Positions 43,956 to 60,387 of a stretch of DNA of 64,000 nt are shown piece after piece (the stretch's first letter is position 1; each line of letters opens with the position of its first letter). The stretch spans positions 5,726-69,725 of the IMG/VR virus record IMGVR_UViG_3300032456_000002; one strand, written 5' to 3'. The notes under the pieces were generated by a model. The model worked only from the letters and a program-made list of their open reading frames with translations. It was not told the origin of the DNA and made no database searches. Origin of the DNA: a virus. Both the position numbers and the translations under genes were made by a program.

Positions 43956-45859
43956 GCCAGCTTACTTTATTGACCACACCACAAGCGATCGCCATTCCCA
44001 CACATCCAAGGGCAAAAGATTCTGCCGATTTTCTACCCAAGTCAGCAGGCAGGAAGCAAGAGCTATTCTCGTTTCAATCCAAAATGGTGCGAGAAACATA
44101 CGACCTGATTCGTGCTAATGAGAAGCGCATCCTGTGGGTAGCAGCGCCATCTGCGGGAAAGACGCGAATCTCTGGACAAGTGATGATTGACGCTACCCAG
44201 CGGGCTAAGAAGCCGATGCGGTGTGCGTTTGTAGTGGAGATGGATGTATTGGGGCAGCAGACCTTAGAGACTTACGAAAAGTTAGGGTTAAACGCCACTC
44301 TTTATAAGGCTGACAAAAAGTTTGATATGTCTGCCCAAGTGGTAGTGATTAGCTCCCAAACCCTAGAGCAGAGGGTAAAGAAGGGGCAAAGCGTCACTGA
44401 ACTATTGGGCAACTTTGGGCTGATATTGGGCGATGAGATTCATACTCTTTCTCAGCGGGTAGGCTGGCGGCTGCTGAATGAAGCTTATGCTCCATCCTCC
44501 ACAATATTCATTGGGATGACGGGCACCCCTTGGAATGAGGGCGATCGCTCTTTATTCCATTGGTTCGACAAGGCTGTATGTGCTCCACAACCCCCAGAGT
44601 TAGTAAAGCTAGGACGGCTTGTGATTGTGCGAGGATTTAGCCCTGATGATATTTTTGCCGCCACTGACTTGAAGTGGAGTGCCAAGGATGGCGATTTTGA
44701 TTTGACGGCTCAAGAGGATGCTGCAATAAGCGATCAGAAATTACAGTTGGTAGTTGAGAAATATTTAGAGCGGGGCGAAGGAAGGACAGCGATCGCTTAT
44801 TGCTCTGGGATTCTTCATGCCAAAATGCTAACCCGCACATTCCTAGCAGCAGGGGTAGCAGCAGAATATCAGACTGGTGACACCCCTGCTGGATGGACAA
44901 AAAACAAAGATGGGCGAAACGACCAACACGACCGAATGGAGTCAGGCGAAACTAAAGTACTGTGCAGTATTGGCACTTGCACTAAAGGCTATGATGCCCC
45001 ATTTGTGAGTTGCATAATTCTGGCTAGGGCAGTGGGCAATAAGAATTTGTATCATCAGATGTCGTGCCGTGGCAACCGCGCCCATGCTTACCCTGATGGC
45101 AATATCAAAGGGGACTGTCTGCTGATAGATTTGGGTGGAAACTGCGATCGCTTTGGGCATCTACCCACTGACTATCAGGATTACTCTGCCGCATTGATGC
45201 CGCCAAAGCGCAAACAGGAAAAGACCGACGACTATTACAAGACTTGCCCAGAGTGTGGGATGGAAAAGATTCTATCGTTTGCTAAGCTCTGCCCTGGTTG
45301 TGGCTATGAATTTGGCAAGGGCAAAGACGATGAAGACACTCTATTCAATTTGGCAGACTTCCAACTCAAGGAATATTTCACTCCACTGGGCAGTCAGCAA
45401 GTCCAATTTGTTCGGAGTCATAAGGCTCGGTACTTTGCCGAGAATATTAATCCTGATAATGTGGCGAAAGAGTTTGCCGCCGAGTTTGGTTTTCAACCGC
45501 CATTGGACTGGCATCTCTGGGCAGTGTTTGGACGCAGATCTAGTAAGGAGCAAAAGGCTAGATATCATACCTACCTTCAAGGATTCGCCCCGCATGATTA
45601 CTGGCTTGATAGACACATGCGGCTAGAGTTTGGGGGTGAGGCTAAGAAGATTCCTGAGTTCCTGGCTAAGTGGCGAGATAAATGGTGGGACATTTTGGGG
45701 ATAGATAAGACTGCAACAATGGAGCAGGTCAAGTTGGCATACTTGGCTGGGGCAAAGCATTGGCACCCTGATGTTTGCAGTGACTTAAAGCATGGGACAG
45801 AGCAAATGCAGATGTTGAACGTGGCGTATGAGGAAGCTAAAAAGCTGCTTTGTGTTTAG
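43952..45859 (+). CDS. SF2 DEAD/DEAH helicase with Zn finger and C-terminal DnaJ domain
   Basis: APSAGKT, DEIH, TGTP, GYD.P, QM..RG.R; CPEC/CPGC; W..LG..WHPD..MQ.LN.AY. Confidence 0.9.
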   Translation: MSQLTLLTTPQAIAIPTHPRAKDSADFLPKSAGRKQELFSFQSKMVRETYDLIRANEKRILWVAAPSAGKTRISGQVMIDATQRAKKPMRCAFVVEMDVLGQQTLETYEKLGLNATLYKADKKFDMSAQVVVISSQTLEQRVKKGQSVTELLGNFGLILGDEIHTLSQRVGWRLLNEAYAPSSTIFIGMTGTPWNEGDRSLFHWFDKAVCAPQPPELVKLGRLVIVRGFSPDDIFAATDLKWSAKDGDFDLTAQEDAAISDQKLQLVVEKYLERGEGRTAIAYCSGILHAKMLTRTFLAAGVAAEYQTGDTPAGWTKNKDGRNDQHDRMESGETKVLCSIGTCTKGYDAPFVSCIILARAVGNKNLYHQMSCRGNRAHAYPDGNIKGDCLLIDLGGNCDRFGHLPTDYQDYSAALMPPKRKQEKTDDYYKTCPECGMEKILSFAKLCPGCGYEFGKGKDDEDTLFNLADFQLKEYFTPLGSQQVQFVRSHKARYFAENINPDNVAKEFAAEFGFQPPLDWHLWAVFGRRSSKEQKARYHTYLQGFAPHDYWLDRHMRLEFGGEAKKIPEFLAKWRDKWWDILGIDKTATMEQVKLAYLAGAKHWHPDVCSDLKHGTEQMQMLNVAYEEAKKLLCV

Positions 45860-45975
45860 CGTTCTTGCGGAAATTGAAAGCTTTAGCTTGAACGATGATA
45901 AGATTTAGGAGCGCGATCGCAGTTCTTGGGAGAGAAGAGCGATCGCTGACCACAGTACTTTAGAGAACAAAGCAA

Positions 45976-46779
45976 GTGACTAACGAAATTTTAACCGGAA
46001 CTAGCGTCAAACTGCGGTTCCTTGATATGGAGCTTGATTCTATTCGGTTGACAGAATCAAAGGAGTACCGCTTTTCTAAATCGCAAACGTTGGCGGCAAT
46101 TGGGAGAAACAGAGACTATCTAGCCGTGTTGGCGAAAAAATCCCCTAACAAGGTTCAAACCCTTACCAGCAAAGGCTTTACCTGGGTTGGCGTTAAGGTG
46201 AAATTCCATGACGGACTCCAGTATCGTCATGCTGAAACCCTTTCGCTTGCTGACGTTCGCATCTTTTGGCGTTGTGAAGATCGGTGGGGCAATCCGACCG
46301 CAGCAGATCTAATCGATATTCTTTCAGAAGATTCGTTATCCGATCGCTGCGATCAGGTATGGGGCGAAACCCGAAGTGAAGAGTCTCGGCATGAGCGCGA
46401 TCGTCGGATGTTTGACACGCCAGAAGTTTGGAGCCTGATGTTTGACCGTGAAGTTGAGTATCATCTTGCTCGGCTGTCTGGGCTTCACAAGAGAGACATT
46501 CGCAACGGGAAAATATATTGGCAATTCTTCTATCGTTGGATGACTCCCGACGAACGAGTTCAAATGGATATAGACAATCCCGTTTTATCCTGCGGACGGC
46601 GTAAATACAAGATCCATCAGTTCTTAACCCCTGAGACAAAAGCCAGGATGCAAGTTCACATTCGTGCAGTCTTTACCTTGATGAAAACCGCTAGGGATAT
46701 GACCGACTGGCGACGGTTGATGATGTGCTACGAAGGTTTTGATCAAGGCGATTTTGATTTTGAATACGAAGCCGTTTAA
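45976..46779 (+). CDS. P63C-like domain antirepressor-family protein
   Basis: close paralogue of 29212..30018. Confidence 0.75.
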   Translation: MTNEILTGTSVKLRFLDMELDSIRLTESKEYRFSKSQTLAAIGRNRDYLAVLAKKSPNKVQTLTSKGFTWVGVKVKFHDGLQYRHAETLSLADVRIFWRCEDRWGNPTAADLIDILSEDSLSDRCDQVWGETRSEESRHERDRRMFDTPEVWSLMFDREVEYHLARLSGLHKRDIRNGKIYWQFFYRWMTPDERVQMDIDNPVLSCGRRKYKIHQFLTPETKARMQVHIRAVFTLMKTARDMTDWRRLMMCYEGFDQGDFDFEYEAV

Positions 46780-46787
46780 CTAACAAC

Positions 46788-47228
46788 ATGGCGCTGTCAC
46801 TTTCGGCAGCGCCTTTCCCTTCCACCCCTTCACCAATCATGCAATCCACCCAAACTAAAACCATATCAATCTGCTTCTGGGGAAATGTACCATCCAAAAA
46901 GAATAATAAGCGCATCCTGAAGCGCGGCAAACGAACAACAATCCTGCCCAGCTTGGCTTATTGCAATTGGGAAAAGTGCGAAGTAGCAAGGCTTAAGGCT
47001 GTCTATGGATGCCCAAAACTTGTAGGCTACTCCCTTGAACTTTCCATCTACTACCCCGACAACAGGGTTAGGGATGAAGACAATACCCTAACCTCTATCA
47101 AAGACTGCCTCAAGACCGCAGGCATCACCAAAGACGACAACTGGCAAGGGCAATCCATACCACCCGTCCTTAAGTTCGTGGGCATCGATCGCCTCAACCC
47201 ACGGGTAGAAGTCCAGATTAGCTATTGA
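46788..47228 (+). CDS. rusA: RusA-like Holliday junction resolvase
   Basis: VPSKKN, RDEDN..S.KD.L..AG..KDDN, PRVEV. Confidence 0.85.
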   Translation: MALSLSAAPFPSTPSPIMQSTQTKTISICFWGNVPSKKNNKRILKRGKRTTILPSLAYCNWEKCEVARLKAVYGCPKLVGYSLELSIYYPDNRVRDEDNTLTSIKDCLKTAGITKDDNWQGQSIPPVLKFVGIDRLNPRVEVQISY

Positions 47229-47253
47229 CGTATACACGCTAAAAGTGTAGAAT
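47225..47253 (+). promoter_or_regulatory. sigma70-type promoter containing the CGCTAAAA motif
   Basis: TTGACG-17-TAGAAT. Confidence 0.7.
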
Positions 47254-47280
47254 TTTGCATAGATGCGTTAGAGAGAATTT

Positions 47281-48289
47281 ATGTTGCAAGAATATTTTAT
47301 ATCTTATGAAATGAGGACTTTCCTTGACGGCAGTGTTATGGGTACTGGTTCTTGCCTTTTTTCTTTTGAGGATGGCTGTTCTGTCCATGATTCAATAAAT
47401 CAGAAGTTAGAAGCATTAACAGATAGGGTAAACGAAGCATCCACAGTCAAGCTGGTTGTACATATTGTAGTTTTTACAAAACTTTAGGAGTTGTTTCATG
47501 TTACCCACCGAGTTGTTAGAGAGATTAAAGACAGGCGATCACCCCAGCTACAAGAGGAAAGTTAATCTCAAAGCTTTATTGAATGCTGCTAAGTGTTACG
47601 GCTATGCCCCAAAGGGGTTGCGGGGTTTTGGTAATGACGTGAACATTCGAGAGAAGACGATTGACAGGCTTGACGTAGAACATCCTGGCTGGAGAGGCTA
47701 CCCTGTGCCAGAGACAGAGGGTAAGTGCCATGCTCACTGATACAGAGTTTTCACTGCTTTTGGGACAGGAGAAGGAAGCGCTGGTGTCGCTGGTGATTCA
47801 ATTGGTGTCTAGGGTTGAGGCGTTGGAGAAGCCCCTAAGCTTACCTGAACTGCCGCCCGCTGGGCAGTATGTAATTCGGGATTCTAGTGGTGCGGTGCGG
47901 TTGATGGGGGACGAAAATAAGTTTTTGATTCGACAGGTGGAAGCGATCGCAATTCTGTTGTCATTAAGCGATCGATATGTGACGATTCAATTTTACTTGA
48001 ACAATCAAAGTCGATTGATGAGTGAGTGGAGCCGTGGGAAGATGGTAGTGAGATGCTAAAAACTCCTCAAGCGCTCTACCGACAAATGAAGCCTGACATC
48101 TTAAAGGCACTGGAAACCCATAGCGGCATCGCTGAGATACAGGAATGTGTTGGCTATGGCACAAAGAAACGTGTGACGATGGCGTTAGTGGAACTGGAGT
48201 GGGAAGGGAAGGTTTATAGCAGTGGTAGACGGAATCAACCGTCTGTTTGGAAATTGGTGGAAATAGTGGAGAGAGGGGCGATCGGCTAA
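47281..48289 (+). CDS. cluster of four small genes (47281..47487, 47498..47740, 47730..48059, 48054..48289; last is wHTH-like)
   Basis: closely spaced or overlapping ORFs after the promoter. Confidence 0.55.
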
Positions 48290-48306
48290 ACTGAAAAGAA
48301 ACCACC

Positions 48307-48774
48307 ATGCCTCCCCAGCTATCCCCACCATGCGGCTTCCATCCTAAAGTTTCTACCCTAGCCCTAGCCCTTGAGAAATACCTCACGACGCAGCCTACCA
48401 TCCGCAAGGCTGCGTTTTATGTGGCATCAGATAAGCCGGGGCAAGAGCAACGCCATGATCATAATCCTTTGGGTTGGTGGACGATGCAAGTCGTCAATGG
48501 GGATACAAAGTCAGGGTTTGATTACATTTCTAATCAGTTTGTCGATGTGCAGTTTAGATTCACTGCCAATAATGTGAACCCCATTAAGGCTCTGGCATTA
48601 CTGGAGACGATTGATGAGGCGCTGCTGACAATGAGTTGCGAATGCTTGGCTTGTGATGGGCAATATGTGACGGCAATAAGGCGATCGAGTATTACCTTGC
48701 CGGTGGTGTTCCGTCCGCAGATTCAAAGGAATAGCGCGGTGGCGTTCTATGAGTTTGCGTTGAAGCGGGGTTAG
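48307..48774 (+). CDS. putative tail terminator protein
   Basis: size and beta pattern (V.VQFRF, A..L..I..AL); weak. Confidence 0.4.
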   Translation: MPPQLSPPCGFHPKVSTLALALEKYLTTQPTIRKAAFYVASDKPGQEQRHDHNPLGWWTMQVVNGDTKSGFDYISNQFVDVQFRFTANNVNPIKALALLETIDEALLTMSCECLACDGQYVTAIRRSSITLPVVFRPQIQRNSAVAFYEFALKRG

Positions 48775-48799
48775 TGGGAAGCTGGTTTTGGTGGTGGTG

Positions 48800-49058
48800 G
48801 TGCCACTTCGCTTTATATCTCAGACCTTCTGCAACTTTTAAGAAGGAGTTGACTACGAGCGACCATCTGCCTCGCAGTGCCACTTAACTTTACATCTCCT
48901 GACTTCTGCAACCATCTTATCTTGAAAGTCGGGGAAAGAAATATTAGGGTGCCACTTAACTTTACATCTCCTACCTTCTGCAACCAAAAAGCTCGATAGC
49001 CTTGCGAACGATCTCACCCTGGGTGCCACTTCGATCAGAGCCTCCGACCTTCTGCAAC
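48800..49058 (-). CRISPR. mini CRISPR array: four 36-bp repeats and three spacers (41, 36, 38 nt), plus a degenerate repeat end at about 49084..49093 with a 25-nt spacer
   Basis: repeats at 48800..48835, 48877..48912, 48949..48984, 49023..49058; minus-strand consensus GTTGCAGAAGGTCGGAGATGTAAAGYKAAGTGGCAC with conserved ends. Confidence 0.9.
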
Positions 49059-49099
49059 CGCATGAGCCTGATGGTAGACCGGGGTGCTACATCTCAACA

Positions 49100-49271
49100 C
49101 GAAGGTTCAATCGCTTTGTGGTAGCTAGAATAAGTACTCTAAGGTTTGCGAGGTTCGGAGGATGAAAAAGAAGTAGAGAGGCAACGCCCCTAAGCCATGA
49201 CTGCTGCATTCCCGAAGGTGCGACGCTATCGTTATCCTGCTCGGCTCACAAAAGCAGTTGTCAACATTGTA
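49100..49271 (-). ncRNA. putative tracrRNA
   Basis: anti-repeat at 49144..49178 (+ strand GTTTGCGAGGTTCGGAGGATGAAAAAGAAGTAGAG resembles the minus-sense repeat); lies between effector and array; ends approximate. Confidence 0.65.
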
Positions 49272-50597
49272 TCAAGGTTCTGCCAAAATGCGATCGCCAT
49301 CCGCAGCTTTTTGTTTGAGCAATGCCCTCAATCTACCAGTCCTCAACCTTGTTACTTTTTTGTTGAATCTGGCAACCCTTTCGGCTCCATTGGGTGCATA
49401 AACAGCAGGCTCAACATCAATAGGTATCGGTTCTGGCTTGGGGATGGGCTTAGTTTTGGCGGGTTGCAGTTCAATTTCTCCATAGGTGCGAACGATGAAT
49501 GTAGATAACTTGTGAGCGTGTTGGTCTGCACCTTTCGCAATTTTCCATTCAACACGTTTGATTTGTTTTCGTAACTCTAGTTCATTCTTTGACTGCGGAA
49601 TGTGCAACCCTAATTTATTGGAACGATTCTGTCTAACGCTTTGCTTCTCCGCTAGTTTTAGTTGCAGTTTCTCCAATTGCTTCGAGAGCTTCAAATTTTC
49701 AAAGGGCTTCACCTCTTTACCTTTGTCATCCCGATAAAGCAGATTCTCAACCCTTGGAAACTCTAAAGAACATTTACGATCGCTTGGTTTGAGTTCAACT
49801 TTAGGCAATTCCCCGGTTAGCTGAAGTTGCCAAAAACCAGGAAGGTTACAAACTTTCAAAACGCAGATCTCTACGTCTGTCCAAACTTTTGCCGACTCAG
49901 GCATGACAATCAGTCCCAGACCAGGAACCCTGATTTGTCCATCTTTGACTTTAATACTTTTAGCGTCGTTACTGACTAGCGTAGACAGTCCGTTACGAAT
50001 GCCCTTAAATCTGGGTTCTCCCATTCGCCCCGACTTATGTTCCTTCCATGCGATCGCCAATGATGCCAGCGTTCCCCGGACGAAAACACTGGGTACTTTC
50101 TGTAGTTCCGCCCACTCTGGGTTCGCCTTTTGGGAGAACATCGCAGACAGGCTAAACGCTGAAGGTCTATCTAAGCGCGGCTCAACGTATGGCAGCGGCA
50201 ACGGACAGCAAGGGCGATAAGGGCGGCGGTAACTATCGAATGATGTGCATGGAGTATATGGAACGGGCACCCATTTAATTTTTGCGGCTGGCTCCACTGG
50301 CTCAAGAGGTTTATCAGTTTTCTTCTTCGCCTTTTTGCTTTTCGTTGCGCCGTTGGCAGGAATGAAACGATACTTCCAAGGAGCAATCACTATACCATCC
50401 TTATCAACCCCTCCAAAAATCGGCATTGATGGATATCTAGTTTTGTCGTACTTGTTCCAAGTGGAATAGCGATCGCACTCTAGAATAAGTTCTAGAGCCT
50501 GATTCCAAACTCTACGCAGCGCCTCAAACCATTGTTCTGTAAGTGCTAACTGAGCAGGATCTAATTTGATTGTGTAAGTTATAGTTTTCATATCCAT
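49272..50597 (-). CDS. TnpB-derived type V (C2c8/V-U2-like) effector, predicted nuclease-dead and truncated
   Basis: MKT..Y.I..Q..W..LR.VWN, PRFK, VPGLG, HKLSTF.VRTY, Y.PNGA; RuvC-I GID is SLE, RuvC-II E is Q; no Zn finger or RuvC-III. Confidence 0.85.
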   Translation of the reverse strand: MDMKTITYTIKLDPAQLALTEQWFEALRRVWNQALELILECDRYSTWNKYDKTRYPSMPIFGGVDKDGIVIAPWKYRFIPANGATKSKKAKKKTDKPLEPVEPAAKIKWVPVPYTPCTSFDSYRRPYRPCCPLPLPYVEPRLDRPSAFSLSAMFSQKANPEWAELQKVPSVFVRGTLASLAIAWKEHKSGRMGEPRFKGIRNGLSTLVSNDAKSIKVKDGQIRVPGLGLIVMPESAKVWTDVEICVLKVCNLPGFWQLQLTGELPKVELKPSDRKCSLEFPRVENLLYRDDKGKEVKPFENLKLSKQLEKLQLKLAEKQSVRQNRSNKLGLHIPQSKNELELRKQIKRVEWKIAKGADQHAHKLSTFIVRTYGEIELQPAKTKPIPKPEPIPIDVEPAVYAPNGAERVARFNKKVTRLRTGRLRALLKQKAADGDRILAEP

Positions 50598-50689
50598 CGC
50601 CTAGTAATAATAGGTTAGTGGTTAGCATAGCTGAGTAGATTGAAGTCTATCAGCTATGCGTTTGAGATTCACTGCGAAATGGGCTGGAT

Positions 50690-50800
50690 CTATTCTCCGA
50701 TCAGCTTTTGGCGATCGCCATTGGTCAATAATCGATAGGCTTCATCTAGGAATTCTTTGGGGACATATTCAGCCGTTACGGTTCGAGGCGTTTGAGCGAT
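50690..50800 (-). pseudogene. orphan antirepressor C-terminus (..NGDRQKLIGE*)
   Basis: same terminal peptide and near-identical DNA as the end of 8583..9407; out of frame with the upstream gene. Confidence 0.7.
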
Positions 50801-51393
50801 TAAGTCGCCACATAATGAGTCATCTTGATATGAAGAGGTTTGCAGTGCTTTTCGATCAAGAGAAGAGAATCACTATGACAATCACCAAAAAGATGAATTC
50901 TTTTCTTATGGCTGGGGTAATACAGGGAATAAACCAAAACCTGTCCAATTGCGGCTTTCCATGAGTCAATACGCTTTACCTCTATCACCTCTGTTGATGT
51001 AAGCAGGTCTATGTTTCCAGCGGGTGTCAAAACTTCCCTTTGTCCTCCCACCTCTCTCTTCAGTTCGTTTGTCACGACTGATTCAGTTAGCCTACCCTTT
51101 GGGCGATCGCCTTTGTGTCGAGAGACGGAGGTAAGATAGTCTACCTGCTCCTGTGTGAGTAAGACAAAAGTCGTCTCATTGACCGCCCCTACTGAGTTTG
51201 TGACAGTTCCGATATTAAATCTTAGGTTCCCAAACCTTTGCTCTACTCGCTCTCGATGCTTGCGAATCGTTTTAATAAAGGACTCGTGCTGAATCCCTAA
51301 GCGATCGGCAATTAGCCTGGAGTCTACAAGCAGAGTCCCATCTTGTTCAACAATGGATAGAGCGGTCGAACTTGGTACAATGTTAGAAGTCAT
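50800..51393 (-). CDS. Rha-like N-terminal domain fused to PD-(D/E)XK-like nuclease domain
   Basis: VDSRLIA..LGIQH; G.IDLLT..EVIEVK...WK.AIGQ.LVY. Confidence 0.75.
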   Translation of the reverse strand: MTSNIVPSSTALSIVEQDGTLLVDSRLIADRLGIQHESFIKTIRKHRERVEQRFGNLRFNIGTVTNSVGAVNETTFVLLTQEQVDYLTSVSRHKGDRPKGRLTESVVTNELKREVGGQREVLTPAGNIDLLTSTEVIEVKRIDSWKAAIGQVLVYSLYYPSHKKRIHLFGDCHSDSLLLIEKHCKPLHIKMTHYVAT

Positions 51394-51490
51394 GATTCTA
51401 GTTCTCTTAGATTTGTGGTTAGCCCCAGGTTCCCGCCTGGGCACTCCAGTAATATTAACGCAAATACCCACAGCAAAAGCACGAACAAGA

Positions 51491-51898
51491 ATGCCCACCT
51501 TCCCCGCCATCAAACCCGACTATTTCTCAGATATCCAGATGCCCGAATACAAGGGCAAGGATTTGGAATTTGATGATGGCGGGGTGCAGACAGTGCAGAC
51601 GCAGTTCCGACCATCAAGGATTTCCTTCTCACTGAAGTATGATTACTTGGTTGTGGCTGAAGTGGAAAGCCTAATGAGTTTCTGGCGATCGGTCTTTGGC
51701 ACCAATGGACGGTTTGACTTGCCTGACATTGTGTTGAGAATGCCATCGCCCATCGTTACGCAATTCAACCTAAGCAATGCTGGGGGCAATGTGTGGCGGT
51801 TCTCCAGTGCTTATACTTTTACTCCAGTGGTAGCAGATAGGGGTAATGAATGCAGTCGGTATAGCACGATGATTAATATCAGAGGGGAGTTGAGTTGA
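51491..51898 (+). CDS. distal / minor tail protein
   Basis: P.FP.I.P, F.DG.., L.Y..L...E...L..F.....G....F.LP, WRF. Confidence 0.65.
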   Translation: MPTFPAIKPDYFSDIQMPEYKGKDLEFDDGGVQTVQTQFRPSRISFSLKYDYLVVAEVESLMSFWRSVFGTNGRFDLPDIVLRMPSPIVTQFNLSNAGGNVWRFSSAYTFTPVVADRGNECSRYSTMINIRGELS

Positions 51899-52161
51899 TG
51901 GCACTAGAATTTACGATGATTGATCTGAATCTAGAGATATCGGAAAAGGACAATGCAGGGTTAGCAGAAATTTTGAACGAGGCGCAAAACAAAAACCTTT
52001 TACCCACAAGGAATCTTATAGGGTTCTGTTGTCGCAGGGTTGGATGGTATGGTCTTTCGGAAGGATATGGAGATTGGAACTATCCTCACTGTCTTACCAC
52101 GAAAGGTGGGGTGATTCCCTATTCTTTTCGCGGTTTGATCAATGCACTGAAGGGGAGTTGA
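51895..52161 (+). CDS. small hypothetical protein
   Basis: ORF between two tail genes. Confidence 0.45.
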   Translation: MMALEFTMIDLNLEISEKDNAGLAEILNEAQNKNLLPTRNLIGFCCRRVGWYGLSEGYGDWNYPHCLTTKGGVIPYSFRGLINALKGS

Positions 52162-52165
52162 TCTA

Positions 52166-52636
52166 ATGTCTATCAACCAATCCTCTCTAGTCAAAATAGG
52201 CTTGCGCATCGAGCTAAGATTCCCATCTGGCTCCAAACTTTACTACCAGAATTACAACCCCACAGCCTTACTCATTGGTGGCAAAACCCATCAACCGCTA
52301 TCAATGGACTATGCTGGGGTGCCAAACTTTTTAGAGCTAGACAATACAGGTATCACCGCCACACTGCCTAACTCTCCAATAATTCGAGACTTATTCCAAT
52401 CTAATAATGGACTCAGGAAAACTATCGTCATCTTGACCCAAATATTCATTGACCAACCGGGGGCTGTCCCTATCCGTAGCCTGCTACAAGTGCGGGCTTC
52501 GAGTGTGGACTATCCTAGTATCTCGCTGGAACTGGAGAGTCCTTTGGATGCGATCGGTGGGCAGATTCCGAATAAATACTTTGTAGAGAAAGACTTCCCA
52601 GAGTTGCCGACTAGAGTGGATGCGAATATCCGCTAA
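52166..52636 (+). CDS. minor tail / hub protein (gpL-like)
   Basis: L.SPLDA....IP...F....FP.LP. Confidence 0.65.
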   Translation: MSINQSSLVKIGLRIELRFPSGSKLYYQNYNPTALLIGGKTHQPLSMDYAGVPNFLELDNTGITATLPNSPIIRDLFQSNNGLRKTIVILTQIFIDQPGAVPIRSLLQVRASSVDYPSISLELESPLDAIGGQIPNKYFVEKDFPELPTRVDANIR

Positions 52637-53313
52637 TCCTCAAACTCAATCACACAAAGGCAATTCCCACGGCAGCTACAAGCCACCCCAATGGGAATAA
52701 TATCACTCAGGTTCACCACGCCCCGGGATGCATAAGTGACGCACTCACTGCAATGATCTCCACCGATCGCCAATACCCTTTTTCCCCGCCTCACCCCGCG
52801 CTTTTTGGCTTCATTCAATTCGGCAGTGGAATACGAAATCACTCCGCTTTGGGCATAAAGTCCTAGCCTAGCTTTTAGTTGCGCTGGAGACACTTTACCT
52901 GCCTTCCATTCGGCTGCTAGATGTTTGATGCCGAATGGTTTGCCATCTTCACCCCGACCTTTGTAGAGTTGCCGCTTGATAGTTTCCTGCACTTTATCCC
53001 AATCGCTCTGGGTCATTTTATCGCGCCCACCCTTACCCAACACTGCACTCGCAATATGGATACGCCTCAAATTATTGCCCGCTTCCCTTTGGAACTCTGG
53101 CAGGGTAATAGAGCGAGTAGAAAGGCGATCGCCCAATGTCCCTAACTCTACCTTTTGGCGATCGAGGTAAAGGCGAGTTTGATTCAGTACCGCAGCTCTG
53201 GAAATGAAAGAACCTTTGCCCGCACCAGTGGCTACTCGGAAGCGCCCTGATTTTGGGTCAAAAGAGAAGTCGTCGGTGTCGAGGTGGAGAGTGTTGGGGA
53301 GGGTGGTGAGCAT
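52633..53313 (-). CDS. minor head morphogenesis protein (Mu gpF-like)
   Basis: HCSEC...P.G..CSC..NC.C C-terminus. Confidence 0.7.
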   Translation of the reverse strand: MLTTLPNTLHLDTDDFSFDPKSGRFRVATGAGKGSFISRAAVLNQTRLYLDRQKVELGTLGDRLSTRSITLPEFQREAGNNLRRIHIASAVLGKGGRDKMTQSDWDKVQETIKRQLYKGRGEDGKPFGIKHLAAEWKAGKVSPAQLKARLGLYAQSGVISYSTAELNEAKKRGVRRGKRVLAIGGDHCSECVTYASRGVVNLSDIIPIGVACSCRGNCLCVIEFED

Positions 53314-53437
53314 GTTTGACGTTAACGCAAAAAATGAGTGTTTTAGCGAGGGAGTGGTAAGATTTAAGGGCGCGATCGCCATTCCTTAGAAGAAGAGCGA
53401 TCGCTGACCACAGACCTATTATTGCTAGGAATTGGCT

Positions 53438-54190
53438 ATGAGTATTGTACCTTTTGATTTCAATGGTTTTGAGCTTCGGACTTTAGGAACATGGGATGCA
53501 CCGCTTTTTGTGGCTGCGGATGTTTGTAAGATTCTGGAGATTAAGAATGTTTCGATGGCTTGTGAGTGCTTGGATGAAGATGAAAAGGGCATCTATAGCG
53601 TCAAGACTCATGGAGGGGGGCAAGACGCGCTCTGTGTTACAGAGCCTGGGCTGTACCGCCTTGTATTTAAATCTCGCAAGCCGATAGCAAAGGTTTTCCA
53701 AAAATGGGTGTTCTCCAAATTGCTGCCATCTATTAGAACCCAATCTCTTTCGGGTGATTGGGTCATCAAAAAGCTCAACGAGATACAAGAGTCGCAGTCT
53801 GAATTAATAGAGATTGCATCAGCCTCAATGGAGTCAGTGTACAGAGACCGTTTAGCCGATCTACTAGCCGGAGCTACTGAGGTGCAATCGTATATCAGCG
53901 CTTTTGCCACGCTAGAAGAGAGTGATGTTGCTGTTGCTGTCTTCGCTGACGTCGTGACGGACGTTGCAGTGATTGAAGTGAAATCGTTTGCCTTGTGGAA
54001 ACAAGCACTAGGACAAGCCCTGGTTTACAAGAAATGCATCAAGTTTTCGGAGAAAGAACCGGGGGTATATTTATTTAACTGCCCCAAAGACAATCGGTTG
54101 CGAGACGTGTTTTCTATTTTTGATGAGTATGAAATCGAGTTTTGCTATTACACGTTCACTGGAGAATCTGAAATCAGAAGGATGCTATAA
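53438..54190 (+). CDS. BRO-N domain fused to PD-(D/E)XK-like domain
   Basis: PLFVAADVC.IL, EPGLYRLVFKSRKP.AK.FQKW; DVVTD..VIEVK...WKQALGQ. Confidence 0.85.
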   Translation: MSIVPFDFNGFELRTLGTWDAPLFVAADVCKILEIKNVSMACECLDEDEKGIYSVKTHGGGQDALCVTEPGLYRLVFKSRKPIAKVFQKWVFSKLLPSIRTQSLSGDWVIKKLNEIQESQSELIEIASASMESVYRDRLADLLAGATEVQSYISAFATLEESDVAVAVFADVVTDVAVIEVKSFALWKQALGQALVYKKCIKFSEKEPGVYLFNCPKDNRLRDVFSIFDEYEIEFCYYTFTGESEIRRML

Positions 54191-54191
54191 G

Positions 54192-54287
54192 ATGTACCGC
54201 GATCGCTATGACAAAGAACCCGTAAATGATCCGCGATGGGGCACAGTCAACACTTACCCCGATTCGATATTGATGGAGGTTGTTTAG
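54192..54287 (+). pseudogene. orphan antirepressor C-terminus
   Basis: MYRDRYDKEPVNDPRWGTVNTYPDSILMEVV*. Confidence 0.6.
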
Positions 54288-54317
54288 TATGGCTTGATAG
54301 TCCCTAGCCCTCACCAT

Positions 54318-54357
54318 TAAAACAGAACCCTCAGAGCATTTTGAGGGTTCTGTTTTT
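54318..54357. terminator. bidirectional terminator
   Basis: AAAACAGAACCCTCAGAG..TTTGAGGGTTCTGTTTT. Confidence 0.8.
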
Positions 54358-54360
54358 GGG

Positions 54361-57300
54361 CTAAATCCCTATTCCTCCTCGGTAGCTGGGGCTGTTGCGC
54401 ATGGAACGATTCATGCGCTTTTCTGTTTCTTGCGATGTCGCAGTAAGTGATCGACGTAGCTGCTCTTCTGTTACGAAATTTTGCTCGTTGATCCGAGTCA
54501 CCTCGTACTCAACCTTGATAGGTTCCCGACTGCCGCCGCTCTCTGACTTGCTGGAGTAGTCCTTATATGTGGCGCGATCGCTGCCAACCATTCCACCCTT
54601 ATCGAATGACCCCATATTGATTGAACGCATCGTTGCAGATCCGTATTTTTGAACGGACGATCGCTGCATAATGTACTCTCCGGGATTGACCCTAGCAATA
54701 TGCTGATCGGGCTTTCCACTGAACCTACCTGGAATCATTCCGCCGTTGTCGAAACCTCCAAGGGAACCAAACAATGAAACCCCAGTGGAAAGAATAGATC
54801 CAATAGTATCGCCACCGCTTCTGCCAGTCCCTCCACCTAAGATGGCTTCCATAATTCCACCGCCGCCGCTTCTCCCCGATCCTTGGAATGAACTGAAAAG
54901 CTCACTGGATGCCCACTGAAGCCCCATATTCACAAGCTGATTAATGACGGTAGATGAGAAGCTATCAAACGCATCCTCTAGGCTTCCTGTGCCCATGACT
55001 AGAGAAGATATGGAGCTACCCAAGCCTTGAAAAGCTTGGAAGGCGGTGTCATTGATAGTTTGCGCTAAGTCGGGGAACTGCTGGGCTAGGTTCTGGAAAC
55101 TCACCTCAGACAAGGATATGGCTTCTTCTCTCATCTTGGTAAAGACGCTTGGATCAAAGCCAGCGGTACCCAACTGCTGCTGCTCTAGTTGATTGATGCT
55201 AGTGAGTCTAGTTTGCAGTTCACTAACGAGTTCAAGCTTACCTTGAAGGAACTGCAACTGATTCGCTCCAAAGACATCGCCCTGAGTATTCAGGCTCTCC
55301 AGTTGCGCCCCCGTCAAAGCTTGCTCTGACTCTTTATTAAATTGCCTTAGTAGTTCAATCTGTTCAACGTCAATCAGTTGCAGTTTGAGATCTCGATTGA
55401 CAGACAAAGCATCAAGCCTGTCTTTGAGATTATCGAGTTGCCCAGTCGCCACTTCCAATTGCAGTGGATCTATCACCGAGCCAGCCGCCAGAGCTTCAGA
55501 CTTCAGCCTTTCAATACCTCCAGAGATTTTAGCTATCTCACTAACGATCGCTCCTGACTCACTCTCGAAGGAACGGCTCACTTCCATCCGTTGCGATCGC
55601 CCTTGCAACATTGCCGCCAACTGTGGATCTTTGACTAGTCCAGCTTGTTGCTGAATCTGCAAATCTTCAGTCTGCTGACTAAGTGCTTTTAGTTGTTCTC
55701 TACCAGTGGCTTCTAAGTTTTCAATAATGGCATTGCGGCGATCGCTTAGGATGCGTTGTTCTCTATCTCTTGCCACTCCAATTTGATCGATCTGAGATTC
55801 GTATTGAGCGATCGCTGCATCCATGCCAGGGACAAGTTCTTTCAATGGAGCAAGGCTAGGATCATCAAGGATTGTTTGTCTAGTTGCCTTCAAGTTATCC
55901 AGACTATTAGTGGCATCATTGATTGTCAGACTCATTGCTCTGGTGGTAGATTCAACGTCTCTTGAATCTGTGGTGAGTTGTTGAAGTGCGGACGCGATCG
56001 GGCTATCTCCAAACGCCGCTAGGATTGAATCTTGATAGCGTTCGTTGTACTGCCGAGTTTCATCAATCAAAGTCCTTTGAGCTTCTTCTAACTTTTGACG
56101 GCTGGCTTGCATCCTTTGACGCAAGGCGATCGTGCTGCCCTCGTTCTGAGCCTCCATTCGACTCATGATTGAATCGGTTTGCTGGGCAATGGCAGCACCA
56201 TATTGAGTTAAGGCTGGATCGATGGCGCTAGTGTTTGCCCCTGGCGTATTGATAGCCGTTCCGCCTGCACCACCACCGCTAAGCCTACCCGCTAATTCAG
56301 CACTCATTCCTTCCCACTTAGCATAAGCGTCAGGATGCCCCGATCGCTGCGTAGCTTGGGCTGCTTGAGTTACTGACATTGAGCCTCTATTCTGAATATC
56401 AAGTAATCCTGGGTTAGTGCCCGCCCCTTGGAAGAATGACCTGGCAGAATGTTCAGGATTCATGATTTGGGCATTGGTGCCCCAATCCATTGAGGAGCGC
56501 TGTTGGAATAACCCAACAGAATCGCGATCGCCCCCAGTCAGATTTACTAGGCTGGATTCTTGCATTGCTGTGGCGATCGCAATTTGAATATCCCGTGGCG
56601 ATACTCCTAAATCCCGTCCTACTTTGGCAATGATGGCAGCGTTGCGCACTTGTTCTTCATTCAGCGTCACACCGCCATAGTTTCCGGCACCGATAGCTGC
56701 GGAGGAAGCACTCATGGATGTGGCGGGTGGTGTTGATGCATTGCCCACATTTCCACCCGCTGCCGCAAAAGCATTAGGTCGAACAGCGACGAACCCAGTC
56801 ATGTCAAAAGTGTCTAGCGGTCGATGGCGAACTGGGGCGCTTGAAGTAGAACGATCTATCATCATGCCGTTGCCCGTATAGATGCCAGTGTGGGTGATGG
56901 CATCAGCGCCCCAATCGCCTTGATAGGTATTGCGGAATCCAACGATGTCACCCGCCACTAACTTCAACGGGTCTGTAATGATCTCCCCAATGTCTCGTCC
57001 GAATAGGCTATTAGCAAAGCCTGCACTTGTGGCAATCCCATCAACAGGAGCATTCGTCACCCCTAATTCAATTCCCGCCTGACTAAACACATCTCTAACA
57101 AAATTGGCACACTGGGCGGCTACTCCTTCCCTAAATTCTGTACCTTCCCGACCTAGAGCTAATTCTGCAACACTGCCACCCAACGCACTACCACCCATCC
57201 CCGGCACAAAACCATTCCCACCGCTGGCACTATTCCGAATCAGGTCAGACCCTTGCCTACCCGTCTGGGCAAGCTGTTGATTCATTCCCGCGATCGTGCC

Positions 57301-60300
57301 TTTCGCTTCAGTCATTCTCCGCAACGGTTCATGGATGAGGTCAATCATTTCATCCAAACCGCCAATGAAATCTCCAAAGAATCTATCAGAGAATCCTGAT
57401 AGATTGCGTTGAATATCATTCTTAGTATTTTGTATCTGCGTATCTAGATCTTGAGCCTCAATAGTTCTGCCAATCTCAGCTATGCTCTCCCCAATCCCTT
57501 TGACAAAATCACTAATCTCTCTAGTGGTTTGCTTGATAGATTCTTGCGCTTGCTGCTGTGACTCTGCCAATTGCGTAGAGGCTTGAGCCGATTGGGTTTG
57601 TAATTGCTCTAGCTGTGCCTTTTGGGTCTGAGCCTGCTGCAGAATCTTAAATTCTTCTGAATCGCGATCGCCCGAAAAGTCTGCAATGTATTGTCCAATC
57701 TCACTGGAGTTTGAACCACTCGATAAGCCTGATATTCCGAATGCTCTAGATGTGGCGGGACTTTGCAGCAGATTGTTGAGTTGCAGCATTGTGGCATTGA
57801 GCGTTTCAATGCTTTGAATCTGTGTGGCTTGGTCGCTAAGGTTTGACGCGGATTGAGCTTGCCCTGGTGTGAGTTGTCCATTGGTTTGGGCAATGGCGAT
57901 CGCCCCTTGCCTTTGGGCAGAACCTAATGCGTTTTGATTGGAGCGAAACTCTGAAGTGGTATTGATGGCTTGCAGTTGCGACTCTAATCTTGCCGCACCA
58001 GAGATAGCCGTGTTGATGGCTTTGGCGTAACCCTGTAGCCCCTTCTCTCCTTCTGCAATTTTGGCGTTGTTGATATTGAGTTGCGACTGTAATTGCTTTA
58101 AATCAGAAGGGTTAAGGTTCCCCTGACTCATGAGCGCTTCTATTTGCTTATTAGAAGCTTTGTAGCCTTCCACCGCTCTTTTGATTTGAGCAGGCAACGC
58201 ATTGACTTCAGCCGCCAATTGTTCCCGCTCCTTAGTCATGGCTTGGTATTGCTTGTCAATTTCAGCTCTACCCGCATCATCTCCAGACCCCAACATTCCG
58301 CGCTTGGCTTGCAAGTCACGCATCTGAACATCGGCAGCCCGCATTTCTTGAAGCTTGCCACCGCCTTGACTAAACTCCTTCAGGGCTTTCGTCATATCTG
58401 CCATGATGCGATCGTTGGCAGGTGCAGCCGCTTTACTCTGGGCTAAGATATCTCGCCCTTCCTTCTGTTGCCTGGTAACGAAGTTTGGATTACTCGCGTC
58501 GGCGCCTTCGTTATTCCAGAACGATCGATCAAACGGAGAACCTTGAAACTTAGTGCTTCTACCCTGAAGCACTTCAGCTTCACGAAGATACTTAGTTCCC
58601 GCATCACCAAACATCCCAGTAATCGCCCCACCGATCATTGTGTCTTCCGCATAACTCTTAGGTAGACTTTCGACTGATTGTTTGAGCAGGTCTGTCTTAT
58701 CTGTTGCCTCTCCAATGATTCTTAGATATTCTTTTAGCCCGTCTACTGATGATTTGGCGAAGTCTTTGGTGGCTCCCTCGGTTTCGCTAAACTGCATCGA
58801 CAGCATTTTTAAGCCATCCGCGATCGCCACAAAGATTAAAGCTTGGGCAGCCAATGGAGCAAATGCTACAGCCGCCTTCAGCATCGTTCCCGGCAACATC
58901 AAAAGCCCTTTGCTTAATGCTCCAATCCCTACCCCGGCGGTGATGGCATTAATCCCCATCCCCAATAACGCCTTAGTTCCAAACCCGATCGCCGCTGCTG
59001 CGACTACTGGCAATATCACTCCCAACGCCTGCAACGCGACAGTCAAAGCCCCCAACCCGAAACTCTGCACAGGCAACAACGCCTTACCAAAGCTGACCTG
59101 CATGGCATAGATTTCATTATTAAATCTATTCATCGAAGCTTGGGCAGAGTTCGCCGCGCCAGCTACCCCGGTCGAAGTTTCAGATTTTAACTGTGATGCA
59201 AACTTAACCATCGCATCCGTTCCAACCTCACCCCGCTGCAACATGTCATCTAATTGCGTAGACGTGACACCAATAGACCGTGCAAATATCTGGAATGCCC
59301 CTGGCAATACGTCTCCAAGCTGCTGCCGCAATTCTTCTGCCGAAACTTTACCCTTACTTGCCATTTGAGCTAAGGCTCTATTGACGCGATCGGCTTCCTC
59401 TACGTTTAGCCCAAAGACTGCTGACGCTTGTCTTGCCGCACTGCCGATTTGGTCGGTTGCCGCTCCTTCCAATGATGTGCCTTTGGTGGCGGCAGCTAGT
59501 TGCGCTTGACCCGCGATCGCACTCTTAAAGTTGCCACCTAATGCCTTGGCTTCAGCGCTTAATCCTTTCAATGTGTCTTGAGTTTTGGAGGCGCTGCCAG
59601 TGACAAAATTTAGTTGTCGTTCAAACTTTTCAAACTCTAGCCCCGCCATTAAAGCTTGTTGACCTGCATTCGTAATGCCAGTCACGATGCCCTCTAACGC
59701 CTGTATTCCAAAGAATGCAGAGCTTAGTTTTAAGGCTCCAGAAAGCTTGGCGAAACTCCCTTGAGCCGCACCAAATTTCTTCTCTGCATTCTTCAGAAAC
59801 TCATCAATAAAATCATCTGCATCACTGAAGCCATGCAGACCTAACTCGAATCCCTTGCTAACTAGCTGCCCGAACCCTTGGAATACGCGAGATGGCGATC
59901 GAATCCCTAGCTTTTTCTTGGTCGATTTGATTACGACGTCAGCCATGAATCCCGACGCTTGAGCTACAGAAGAGCTACCCGATTTAATGCCATCAATCAA
60001 CCCATCGCTGATAGCCCTACCTGCACTTTTCGCCCCTGCAACATTTGAGCGAGAAGCGCCACCACTCACAGCCCCAATACGAATATTGCCTAAACTCTTT
60101 AACTCCTTCGCCTCCACTACTAACGATCGAATCTTGGACGTTGTGGCATCCAATGTTTTATTAAGCGCAGTTAAGGCGCGATCGTCTACCAACGGACGGA
60201 TCACATTGGACTTAAATAACTGCACTGTCTCTTTGAGATGCTTGCCTAGGTCGGTAAGTTGGCGATCGTCTACCGTGGCTTTAATCTTGATTGCTGTGTT

Positions 60301-60387
60301 TGCCTGACTGCTACCAAACCTCTTAAGGTCTCGCATTACCCCGCTGAGGTCTAAGCCAGTGCCAATCGAAATAGAAGCAATTTCCAT
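54361..60387 (-). CDS. tail tape measure protein with CHAP/NlpC-like and lysozyme-like domains
   Basis: LGI.SPSRVF; QMASKGKV.AEELRQQLG; QCANFV..HTGI; A.QESSL..GDRDSVGLFQQR; GEY.M. Confidence 0.92.
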   Translation of the reverse strand: MEIASISIGTGLDLSGVMRDLKRFGSSQANTAIKIKATVDDRQLTDLGKHLKETVQLFKSNVIRPLVDDRALTALNKTLDATTSKIRSLVVEAKELKSLGNIRIGAVSGGASRSNVAGAKSAGRAISDGLIDGIKSGSSSVAQASGFMADVVIKSTKKKLGIRSPSRVFQGFGQLVSKGFELGLHGFSDADDFIDEFLKNAEKKFGAAQGSFAKLSGALKLSSAFFGIQALEGIVTGITNAGQQALMAGLEFEKFERQLNFVTGSASKTQDTLKGLSAEAKALGGNFKSAIAGQAQLAAATKGTSLEGAATDQIGSAARQASAVFGLNVEEADRVNRALAQMASKGKVSAEELRQQLGDVLPGAFQIFARSIGVTSTQLDDMLQRGEVGTDAMVKFASQLKSETSTGVAGAANSAQASMNRFNNEIYAMQVSFGKALLPVQSFGLGALTVALQALGVILPVVAAAAIGFGTKALLGMGINAITAGVGIGALSKGLLMLPGTMLKAAVAFAPLAAQALIFVAIADGLKMLSMQFSETEGATKDFAKSSVDGLKEYLRIIGEATDKTDLLKQSVESLPKSYAEDTMIGGAITGMFGDAGTKYLREAEVLQGRSTKFQGSPFDRSFWNNEGADASNPNFVTRQQKEGRDILAQSKAAAPANDRIMADMTKALKEFSQGGGKLQEMRAADVQMRDLQAKRGMLGSGDDAGRAEIDKQYQAMTKEREQLAAEVNALPAQIKRAVEGYKASNKQIEALMSQGNLNPSDLKQLQSQLNINNAKIAEGEKGLQGYAKAINTAISGAARLESQLQAINTTSEFRSNQNALGSAQRQGAIAIAQTNGQLTPGQAQSASNLSDQATQIQSIETLNATMLQLNNLLQSPATSRAFGISGLSSGSNSSEIGQYIADFSGDRDSEEFKILQQAQTQKAQLEQLQTQSAQASTQLAESQQQAQESIKQTTREISDFVKGIGESIAEIGRTIEAQDLDTQIQNTKNDIQRNLSGFSDRFFGDFIGGLDEMIDLIHEPLRRMTEAKGTIAGMNQQLAQTGRQGSDLIRNSASGGNGFVPGMGGSALGGSVAELALGREGTEFREGVAAQCANFVRDVFSQAGIELGVTNAPVDGIATSAGFANSLFGRDIGEIITDPLKLVAGDIVGFRNTYQGDWGADAITHTGIYTGNGMMIDRSTSSAPVRHRPLDTFDMTGFVAVRPNAFAAAGGNVGNASTPPATSMSASSAAIGAGNYGGVTLNEEQVRNAAIIAKVGRDLGVSPRDIQIAIATAMQESSLVNLTGGDRDSVGLFQQRSSMDWGTNAQIMNPEHSARSFFQGAGTNPGLLDIQNRGSMSVTQAAQATQRSGHPDAYAKWEGMSAELAGRLSGGGAGGTAINTPGANTSAIDPALTQYGAAIAQQTDSIMSRMEAQNEGSTIALRQRMQASRQKLEEAQRTLIDETRQYNERYQDSILAAFGDSPIASALQQLTTDSRDVESTTRAMSLTINDATNSLDNLKATRQTILDDPSLAPLKELVPGMDAAIAQYESQIDQIGVARDREQRILSDRRNAIIENLEATGREQLKALSQQTEDLQIQQQAGLVKDPQLAAMLQGRSQRMEVSRSFESESGAIVSEIAKISGGIERLKSEALAAGSVIDPLQLEVATGQLDNLKDRLDALSVNRDLKLQLIDVEQIELLRQFNKESEQALTGAQLESLNTQGDVFGANQLQFLQGKLELVSELQTRLTSINQLEQQQLGTAGFDPSVFTKMREEAISLSEVSFQNLAQQFPDLAQTINDTAFQAFQGLGSSISSLVMGTGSLEDAFDSFSSTVINQLVNMGLQWASSELFSSFQGSGRSGGGGIMEAILGGGTGRSGGDTIGSILSTGVSLFGSLGGFDNGGMIPGRFSGKPDQHIARVNPGEYIMQRSSVQKYGSATMRSINMGSFDKGGMVGSDRATYKDYSSKSESGGSREPIKVEYEVTRINEQNFVTEEQLRRSLTATSQETEKRMNRSMRNSPSYRGGIGI

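Follow-up and report, generated by a model that had tools for sequence, protein, structure and literature searches.

The window analysed here (the whole stretch of DNA, 64,000 nucleotides in length) encodes on its minus strand a TnpB-sized protein, a putative tracrRNA and a short CRISPR array. The best reading of this locus, and one that is probably correct, is that it serves in dual-RNA-guided DNA binding and silencing by a nuclease-dead effector. The locus would represent a phage-borne, adaptation-less V-U2-like CRISPR system, the effector of which has been stripped of its RuvC nuclease. A tracrRNA derived from just past the effector gene, comprising a three-stem scaffold followed by an anti-repeat, would pair in trans with each repeat of the short, drifting array, and the resulting crRNA:tracrRNA-effector complexes would bind matching DNA uncut, blocking the transcription or replication of what are likely genes of the host or of a rival mobile element. 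A damaged unit ahead of the array (R0 and S0) would be an old repeat-spacer unit crippled by a 10-nt deletion, and not a dedicated cis guide. Blocks of transcription or replication through RNA-guided binding are described, in the accessible parts of the literature, for Cas12m, TldR and dCas12f, and the combination of a conserved dead nuclease, a tracrRNA, a non-growing array and real targets fits such a block.

Genomic setting and layout of the locus

The 64-kb window forms part of a 69,725-base IMG/VR virus record with a CheckV completeness of 67%. Its genes encode portal, terminase, head protease, major head, tail, tape-measure and endolysin proteins, as well as helicases, a methyltransferase and RusA, a set of structural and replication genes that identifies the source as a tailed phage. 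A cyanobacterial host is suggested by the relatives retrieved and by the many occurrences of the GCGATCGC motif. The tape-measure protein (2008 aa; 54361-60387, minus strand) contains an internal endolysin-like segment at residues ~1226-1386, on the basis of PHROG matches.

The locus is situated between the replication genes and the tail genes, amid Rha- and Bro/Ant-like regulator genes, and the neighbours of the effector gene encode these regulators and proteins of unknown family. The first-pass annotation had described a gene stop, a hairpin-rich RNA, an anti-repeat, a linker, a 10-mer, a 25-nt short spacer and full repeats in succession on the minus strand, and every one of these parts was found in its place. 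The 441-aa ORF (stop at 49272) is followed by the structured stretch, the anti-repeat, a linker of ~50 nt, GATGTAGCAC, the 25-nt S0 and repeats R1 to R4, as listed below; L002 and L007 are loci of relatives, and X2 and X3 contigs are considered with the spacers.

49272..50597, minus strand: effector gene, 441 aa (P0001), a divergent type V-U2/C2c8-like TnpB relative, predicted to be nuclease-dead
49176..49262, minus strand: three-stem RNA scaffold, putatively the 5′ module of the tracrRNA (aligned to L002 4373-4459 and L007 3265-3350)
49191..49177, minus strand: third scaffold stem, a hairpin at the same site as a terminator-like match
49144..49178, minus strand: anti-repeat, predicted to form a collinear duplex with R1
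49096..49143, minus strand: linker from the anti-repeat to R0 (to 49094 if counted up to GATGTAGCAC), with no significant likeness to the repeats
49084..49095, minus strand: R0, decayed repeat remnant GAGATGTAGCAC, containing GATGTAGCAC (49093..49084)
49059..49083, minus strand: S0, 25-nt spacer-like stretch after R0, read from the sequence
49023..49058, minus strand: repeat R1, 36-nt unit
48985..49022, minus strand: spacer S1, 38 nt, matched by X3 and X2 contigs
48949..48984, minus strand: repeat R2, 36-nt unit
48913..48948, minus strand: spacer S2, 36 nt, of which 35 nt are matched by an X2 contig
48877..48912, minus strand: repeat R3, 36-nt unit
48836..48876, minus strand: spacer S3, 41 nt, read from the sequence
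48800..48835, minus strand: repeat R4, 36-nt unit, the most diverged full copy

The true repeat unit is 36 nt in length (GTTGCAG...GTGGCAC) and is present in four full copies sharing 66-95% identity, with common ends (GTTGCAG... and ...GTGGCAC) and differing middles. Neither Cas1 nor Cas2 was found in the 69.7-kb record (~67% complete), which together with the drifted repeats suggests an array that no longer grows. A TnpB-sized effector adjoining a CRISPR array without adaptation genes, here with the four repeats directly downstream, is a trait of type V-U2. No Rfam matches were obtained over 44000..56000, and no sigma-70-like promoter was detected in 48600..50800, the linker included, where the third stem of the scaffold represents the sole terminator-like match. 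Just past the array, a 69-nt stretch (48703-48771) lies at the 3′ end of a plus-strand ORF (48307..48774; 155 aa; no Pfam or PHROG family). This stretch recurs in X5 and in X2, flanked by other sequences on both sides, and its depth in X2 is high (~143, where the phage has 8-13). Conservation of a gene end, or a small element that is mobile or repeated, may account for it.

The effector protein and its relatives

The best NCBIfam family for P0001 is NF038192 (V_cas_c2c8; 197.5 bits), with residues 4-437 aligned to positions 1-434 of the 457-position profile. This score falls short of the curated cut-off of 350 bits, while canonical C2c8 relatives attain 380-573 bits among the 25 of 150 listed matches that were scanned; the guided_TnpB model covers the protein only at profile positions 58-290 of 389. 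As such, the window locus belongs to V-U2 only in a loose sense. An exhaustive profile search retrieved 177 relatives at E <= 0.001, including 24 at <= 1e-30, and the closest of them (P0003) shares 59-64% identity with P0001. When P0001 was aligned with 16 relatives (alignment A1), the RuvC-I aspartate was found to be lost and the RuvC-II glutamate column to be occupied by Q, while the protein ends ahead of both the zinc finger and RuvC-III, which are therefore absent. Canonical members retain GxDxG, E, CxxC...CxxC and RDxNAAxNI in this alignment; the intact RuvC triad and zinc finger that typify canonical C2c8 are lacking in P0001.

These losses were further surveyed in a 76-row table comprising P0001, the L002 protein, P0003-P0074 (without P0040 and P0052, which are <350 aa) and four locus proteins; P0075-P0152 were left out. 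The triad and zinc finger are kept in 36/76 rows, while 26/76, P0001 included, possess none of the four features. P0001 groups with P0003 (support 100) in a FastTree phylogeny, within a 26-row clade made up of inactive proteins only (support 91; inner node 97); the tree is rooted at the midpoint only and gives no ground for nesting this clade inside active C2c8. The conservation of the inactive clade argues for a function and against decay.

An AlphaFold2 model of P0001 (mean pLDDT 80; pTM 0.69) was used in a fold search, in which the best match was Cas12p (9jfs; E 2e-16; TM-score 0.58; identity 17%) and the TnpB structures 8iaz and 8exa were also retrieved. A sequence-profile search of structures likewise returned 9jfs (E 7e-44), as well as 8bf8 (E 7.8e-37). 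The loss of the RuvC residues and the retention of the TnpB/Cas12 fold predict binding without cutting, and on the basis of the alignment and the model P0001 is very probably a TnpB/Cas12-fold protein that binds but cannot cut. RuvC loss or C-terminal truncation with the remaining fold kept, as seen in P0001, is the feature by which TldR and dCas12f are recognised.

Relatives with accompanying DNA were absent from a single-protein scan of IMG/VR, a tblastn search of the phage collection and two metagenome scans. Among 401 sampled cyanobacterial genomes, 62 contain a match at E <= 1e-15 and only two places fit the profile end to end; one locus, L007, was obtained by genome scanning from a Stenomitos MAG, in which the contig ends 89 nt past the gene. 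The remaining locus of this subclade, L002 (IMG/VR provirus record G402), is the nearest relative for which DNA was available and encodes a nuclease-dead protein with 37% identity to P0001 and the same RNA scaffold, and no CRISPR-like array could be found in 80,000 of the 80,751 bases of its record. The L002 gene (4614-5795, minus strand) and a gene of the sigma-70 family (Pfam regions 2, 3 and 4) are arranged tail-to-tail, with a DNA polymerase III beta-clamp gene following the latter. This arrangement recalls the published pairing of dCas12f and sigmaE and provides a lead. A candidate cis partner for the stretch after the L002 scaffold (-36.5 kcal/mol; 3/300 shuffles) was rejected, since the extremes of 7,994 windows taken from the same record are at least as good, and no targets were found for three candidate L002 guides.

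A putative tracrRNA downstream of the effector gene

The first ~86 nt past the effector stop codon align across the window, L002 and L007 and fold into three stems. Twelve of the 21 predicted pairs show compensatory double changes in these three loci, providing the covariation among homologues for which the first-pass annotation had proposed to look. Conservation of the scaffold extends to one subclade and 3 loci only, and a covariance model recovered just its three training sequences and one weak match (E 0.53) in 112,891 bases, with nothing in the V-U2 loci L003-L005. The stability of the 217-nt stretch as a whole is not out of the ordinary (z = +1.46; 190/200 shuffles fold at least as well). 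A long-range GGGG...CCCC stem to the degenerate repeat, obtained by single-sequence folding, was rejected, as it competes with the local hairpin at 49191..49177 that covaries in the three loci.

The anti-repeat pairs collinearly with the entire repeat. Co-folding with each repeat, a further proposed check, yielded duplexes with all four full copies, ranging from about -28.9 to -29.8 kcal/mol for R1 to -22.3, -20.8 and -19.7 kcal/mol for R2, R3 and R4, respectively, and the R1 duplex (-28.9 kcal/mol) lies far beyond the shuffles (mean -16.8, sd 3.0; 500 shuffles). The same arrangement, with other sequences, is observed in 3/3 other V-U2 arrays examined: L003 and L004, with inactive effectors, and L005, with an active one, each harbor, 50-140 nt ahead of the first repeat, an inverted version of the repeat of that locus, the sequence of which is quite different. 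The duplexes with the own repeat reach -29.8 (window), -33.7 (L003), -25.4 (L004) and -23.1 kcal/mol (L005), and every row of a 4 x 4 matrix of anti-repeats and repeats has its lowest energy at the matched pair, with cross pairs at -11.9 to -23.2 kcal/mol, indicating co-variation at the level of the whole duplex. An anti-repeat complementary to the repeat and encoded beside the effector and array, the hallmark of dual-guide type V systems, is thus found in the window and likewise in L003, L004 and L005.

Together, the scaffold covariation and the own-repeat-specific anti-repeats lend good support, at the sequence level, to a tracrRNA at the window locus, and the tracrRNA-like RNA with an anti-repeat beside a repeat array that the first-pass annotation described is borne out by the duplexes and the covariation. 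A tracrRNA furthermore looks like a trait of the V-U2 family. In L003 (2989-4629), L004 (2944-4584) and L005 (2989-4644), the reading frame extends for ~140 codons beyond the homologous part, crossing the anti-repeat region, and terminates in the first CRISPR repeat, such that the tracrRNA would overlap the 3′ end of the gene. TnpB omegaRNAs overlap the 3′ end of their gene. In the subclade of the window, the frame ends earlier and the RNA is located in the 3′ untranslated region. The accessible text on cyanophage vB_AphaS-CL131 (PMC6293099) reports that no tracrRNA was found at its V-U2 locus, and the accessible part of a 2024 review table enters none for V-U2. Our literature search retrieved no description of a tracrRNA for C2c8, V-U2 or type V-U, where supplementary material may contain V-U2 RNAs or inactive branches.

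Related sequences were also identified in an RNA-seq library of a freshwater metagenome (X4), which was searched as contigs. One X4 contig covers 49088..49259, that is, the scaffold, anti-repeat, linker and R0, while a second contains an R1-like repeat between other spacers. These contigs come from an RNA library but possibly reflect DNA carry-over, and strand and ends are not readable from them. In the first contig, 49088..49198 continues into 49194..49259 in the opposite orientation, a snap-back joint (window 49197-49259) that could be due to cDNA synthesis folding back on the structured scaffold or to an assembly artefact.

The decayed first repeat-spacer unit

Taken alone in the window, the 10-mer GATGTAGCAC is near chance. 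There are 65 matches to 10-mers within <=2 mismatches of GAAGTGGCAC in 139,450 record positions, corresponding to ~0.04 expected in the 85-nt linker, and local alignment of the linker to R2 and R3 recovers only the 8-mer GAGATGTA, a result reached by 109 and 92 of 2000 shuffles. The 8-mer corresponds to the middle of R2/R3, and GCAC to the repeat end. The related X4 contig follows the window over 49088..49198, apart from two differences, and diverges thereafter. Here, in the reverse complement of the loose end, the common GAGATGTA is followed by ten extra letters and then by GTAGCAC, and the repeat half so formed is alike at 20/23 positions (by eye) to the 3′ two-thirds of R4, with a different spacer next. 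This fuller repeat half identifies R0 as a genuine repeat with a deletion. The window R0 reads as GAGATGTA plus GCAC, 10 nt having been deleted internally from between two GTA triplets, and R0 with S0 is, from this comparison, a real but damaged repeat-spacer unit. The degenerate first repeat before a short spacer that the first-pass annotation had noted is accordingly a genuine remnant on the strength of the X4 contig, though the 10-mer alone is near chance.

It had further been proposed that this first unit could act as a natural single guide in cis, while the array supplies guides in trans. The tracrRNA would then be co-transcribed with R0 and S0 as an omegaRNA-like molecule and the locus would be a living intermediate, which we consider unlikely. 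The parts, namely scaffold, anti-repeat, linker, repeat end and spacer, follow one another as in an omegaRNA or single guide, the interval from the anti-repeat to R0 is free of terminator-like sites, and the RNA-library contig bridges the scaffold to R0 and beyond in a relative. Array-less forms exist in the clade, as L002, with its shared scaffold, shows, and the collapse of crRNA and tracrRNA into a single guide has been proposed for dCas12f in the accessible parts of PMC10691335 and PMC13472631. However, pairing in cis between the anti-repeat and the 81-nt linker plus S0 amounts to only -12.7 kcal/mol (-12.1 kcal/mol with the R0 remnant alone) and is matched by 42/300 dinucleotide shuffles, and the ten letters that the window R0 has lost and the X4 relative has kept made up most of the part with which the fuller copy would pair. 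S0 has no match, and hence no target, elsewhere in the record, and the sequence at its position differs in the X4 relative, so that there is no conserved private guide; L002 has yielded no guide or target either. No comparable unit is present between the anti-repeat and first repeat of L003, L004 or L005 (0/3), where 1236, 1457 and 1029 of 2000 shuffles, respectively, score as well. No contig of four sequencing runs spans S0 or S3, which does not imply their absence.

Of the suggested omegaRNA-to-tracr/crRNA intermediate, the tracrRNA-like RNA, the repeat remnant and the single-guide order of parts can be retained, while the working cis guide is not supported. Should the locus represent an intermediate, the change would seem to lead from an array, by decay, to a single guide rather than from an omegaRNA to a CRISPR system, since the locus sits in an all-inactive clade of a CRISPR-associated family. 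The idea is not new in principle, the same route having been proposed for dCas12f in the accessible text of two studies, one with an array cut down to a half repeat beside the tracrRNA and subsequent fusion into a new omegaRNA (PMC10691335), the other with a split-and-collapse scenario in which crRNA and tracrRNA give rise to a single guide (PMC13472631).

Spacers, targets and the coding strand of the guides

Natural protospacers exist for two of the spacers. S1 is matched at 38/38 nt, with 0 differences, in an X3 contig (record 9; 269 nt) and in an X2 contig, with unrelated flanks on both sides, while S2 is matched at 35/36 nt (48913-48947) in an X2 contig that extends for 255 letters of unrelated sequence in either direction, the first S2 position being the mismatched one. 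Both X2 and X3 also contain near-identical pieces of the window phage. The target contigs have a depth of ~10 in X2, where the phage pieces have 8-13, and of 10 in X3, where the phage has 3. Targets were absent from the record, IMG/VR, the phage collection and the 401 sampled cyanobacterial genomes, and none was found for S3 in the record. The targets of S1 and S2 could possibly belong to the host, a rival element or the missing third of the phage.

The S2 site (30-nt flanks, by eye) begins 1-2 nt after an ATG, with GGAGG 7 nt upstream of the ATG and an in-frame TGA two codons upstream, features that place it at a translation start. The site matched by S1 is internal to an open frame and reads in frame as QGEIVRKAIELF, which may resemble a helix of the ribbon-helix-helix type. 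No PAM-like motif is common to the flanks of the S1 and S2 protospacers. Both sites have the sense orientation, such that a crRNA would pair with the template strand, but two sites alone carry no statistical weight. By eye, S3 (48836-48876, minus strand) contains GAGG, three letters and ATG, and S0 (49059-49083, minus strand) ends in AGG, three letters and ATG; these stretches might be further translation-start regions like the S2 target.

We infer that the tracrRNA and array are transcribed from the gene strand. The reverse arrangement, with both transcribed from the plus strand and the spacer RNAs acting at the RNA level, by translation block or RNA binding, as antisense to the 5′ parts of target mRNAs, is decidedly improbable. 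Duplexes between the anti-repeat and repeats are as stable or more so on the opposite strand of the window (R1 -31.9 vs -29.8, R3 -29.2 vs -23.7 and R4 -25.3 vs -20.6 kcal/mol), and duplex energies therefore cannot fix the strand. Both spacer matches start at the first spacer letter as read on the plus strand, with the lone S2 mismatch at the far end, and the S2 site spans codons 2-13 of an ORF (by eye). Scaffold pairing speaks against this arrangement, with 57/60 cells paired on the gene strand (9 of them G-U, which become C-A) compared to 49/60 on the other, a count favoring the gene strand in that the structure was predicted on it. Folding energies of the scaffold favor the gene strand in 3/3 loci, and the spacer-side repeat end (GCAC) is the conserved end in the window, L003 and L004. 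In TnpB and Cas12 systems, the guide RNA has the same sense as the gene and the guide follows the repeat on its 3′ side, which runs counter to plus-strand transcription.

Proposed function and significance

Binding by a dead effector could serve recruitment instead of a roadblock, with the effector bringing in a sigma factor for activation, as in dCas12f-sigmaE, or some other enzyme. The sigma-70-family gene beside array-less L002 and the published RNA-guided transcription by dCas12f with sigmaE (PMC13472631, accessible part) give this some appeal, but neither a sigma factor nor another conserved partner lies beside the gene in the window and both known target sites lie within ORFs in the sense orientation and not upstream of genes (by eye), which makes it very improbable. 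Least probable of all is that the locus is a decaying relic with no present function: the drifted repeats, deleted R0, lack of adaptation genes and short array are outweighed by the intact 441-aa frame, the age and diversity of the 26-row inactive clade, the compensatory changes that keep the scaffold stems, the continued match of anti-repeat and repeats and the perfect or near-perfect matches of two spacers to natural DNA.

We suggest that RNA-guided binding without cleavage, with silencing as its outcome, remains the preferred function of the locus. A bolder and doubtful extension is that the nuclease-dead cyanophage V-U2 clade consists of programmable silencers aimed at gene starts of the host or rival phages, the design of which is collapsing to an omegaRNA-like single guide, with the window and L002 as successive stages in a second independent replay of the dCas12f route. 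The decayed first unit and the array-less sister L002 in any event provide material on the interconversion of dual and single guides.

V-U2 is the one early V-U group that is, in the accessible literature, still listed as uncharacterised and without a tracrRNA. New here are a phage-borne V-U2 lineage, a putative tracrRNA, an inactive clade and natural protospacers. V-U2 loci would, on this evidence, encode an anti-repeat RNA, a sizeable branch of the family, for the most part from viruses and metagenomes, is conserved in spite of being catalytically dead by sequence, and the spacers have real natural targets. If the silencing reading is true, cyanobacterial phages possess natural devices of the CRISPRi kind that are compact (441 aa), which would bear on phage-host and phage-phage conflict and could be a source of small programmable DNA binders.

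Comparison with known systems

The closest counterparts are the V-U2 (C2c8) systems, such as that in cyanophage vB_AphaS-CL131, which likewise combine a TnpB-sized effector next to an array with a lack of adaptation genes and occur in cyanobacteria and their phages (PMC6293099, accessible text). The window effector differs in its score (197.5 against the cut-off of 350) and in the loss of the RuvC residues and zinc finger that canonical members keep. Furthermore, the window possesses only four drifted repeats and a putative tracrRNA, whereas none is reported in the accessible text on CL131.

Cas12p, or 'Cas12 hacker' (type V-P; PDB 9jfs; bioRxiv 10.1101/2025.01.20.633832), is the closest solved structure by both profile and fold, and is, according to the accessible text, phage-associated, miniature and tracrRNA-dependent, the last of which is predicted for the window effector. 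The same text presents Cas12p as a 500-700-aa nuclease that is active and acts together with thioredoxin, while P0001 comprises 441 aa and is catalytically dead by sequence.

TldR and dCas12f (PMC13622181, PMC13472631 and PMC10691335, each in its accessible part) share the C-terminal truncation that removes RuvC-III and the expectation of binding instead of cutting. One dCas12f cluster linked to a CRISPR array, with guides matching promoters, is mentioned there, and a half repeat next to a tracrRNA is described as a step to a re-fused single guide (PMC10691335). The window lineage nevertheless belongs to V-U2 instead of Cas12f or IS-type TnpB and is carried by a phage of cyanobacteria. It also retains an anti-repeat along with its array, as expected of a dual-RNA design, whereas single guides are employed by TldR and dCas12f-sigmaE, for which no tracrRNA was found in the accessible text.

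The truncated repeat-spacer units of Cas12k, a nuclease-dead type V effector of cyanobacteria, resemble R0 and S0 in combining a repeat 3′ end with a shorter spacer (bioRxiv 10.1101/2021.02.06.429022, accessible text). According to this source, the Cas12k units are found where the array ends on its 3′ side, or farther out, and match a tRNA attachment site, unlike R0 and S0, which lie 5′ of the array, carry a deletion, pair at chance level and have no target found. Finally, the TnpB omegaRNA shares with the window a structured scaffold right after the gene and a TnpB-like protein fold, but the window guides would not be fused to the scaffold and would come instead from a repeat array that pairs with the anti-repeat.
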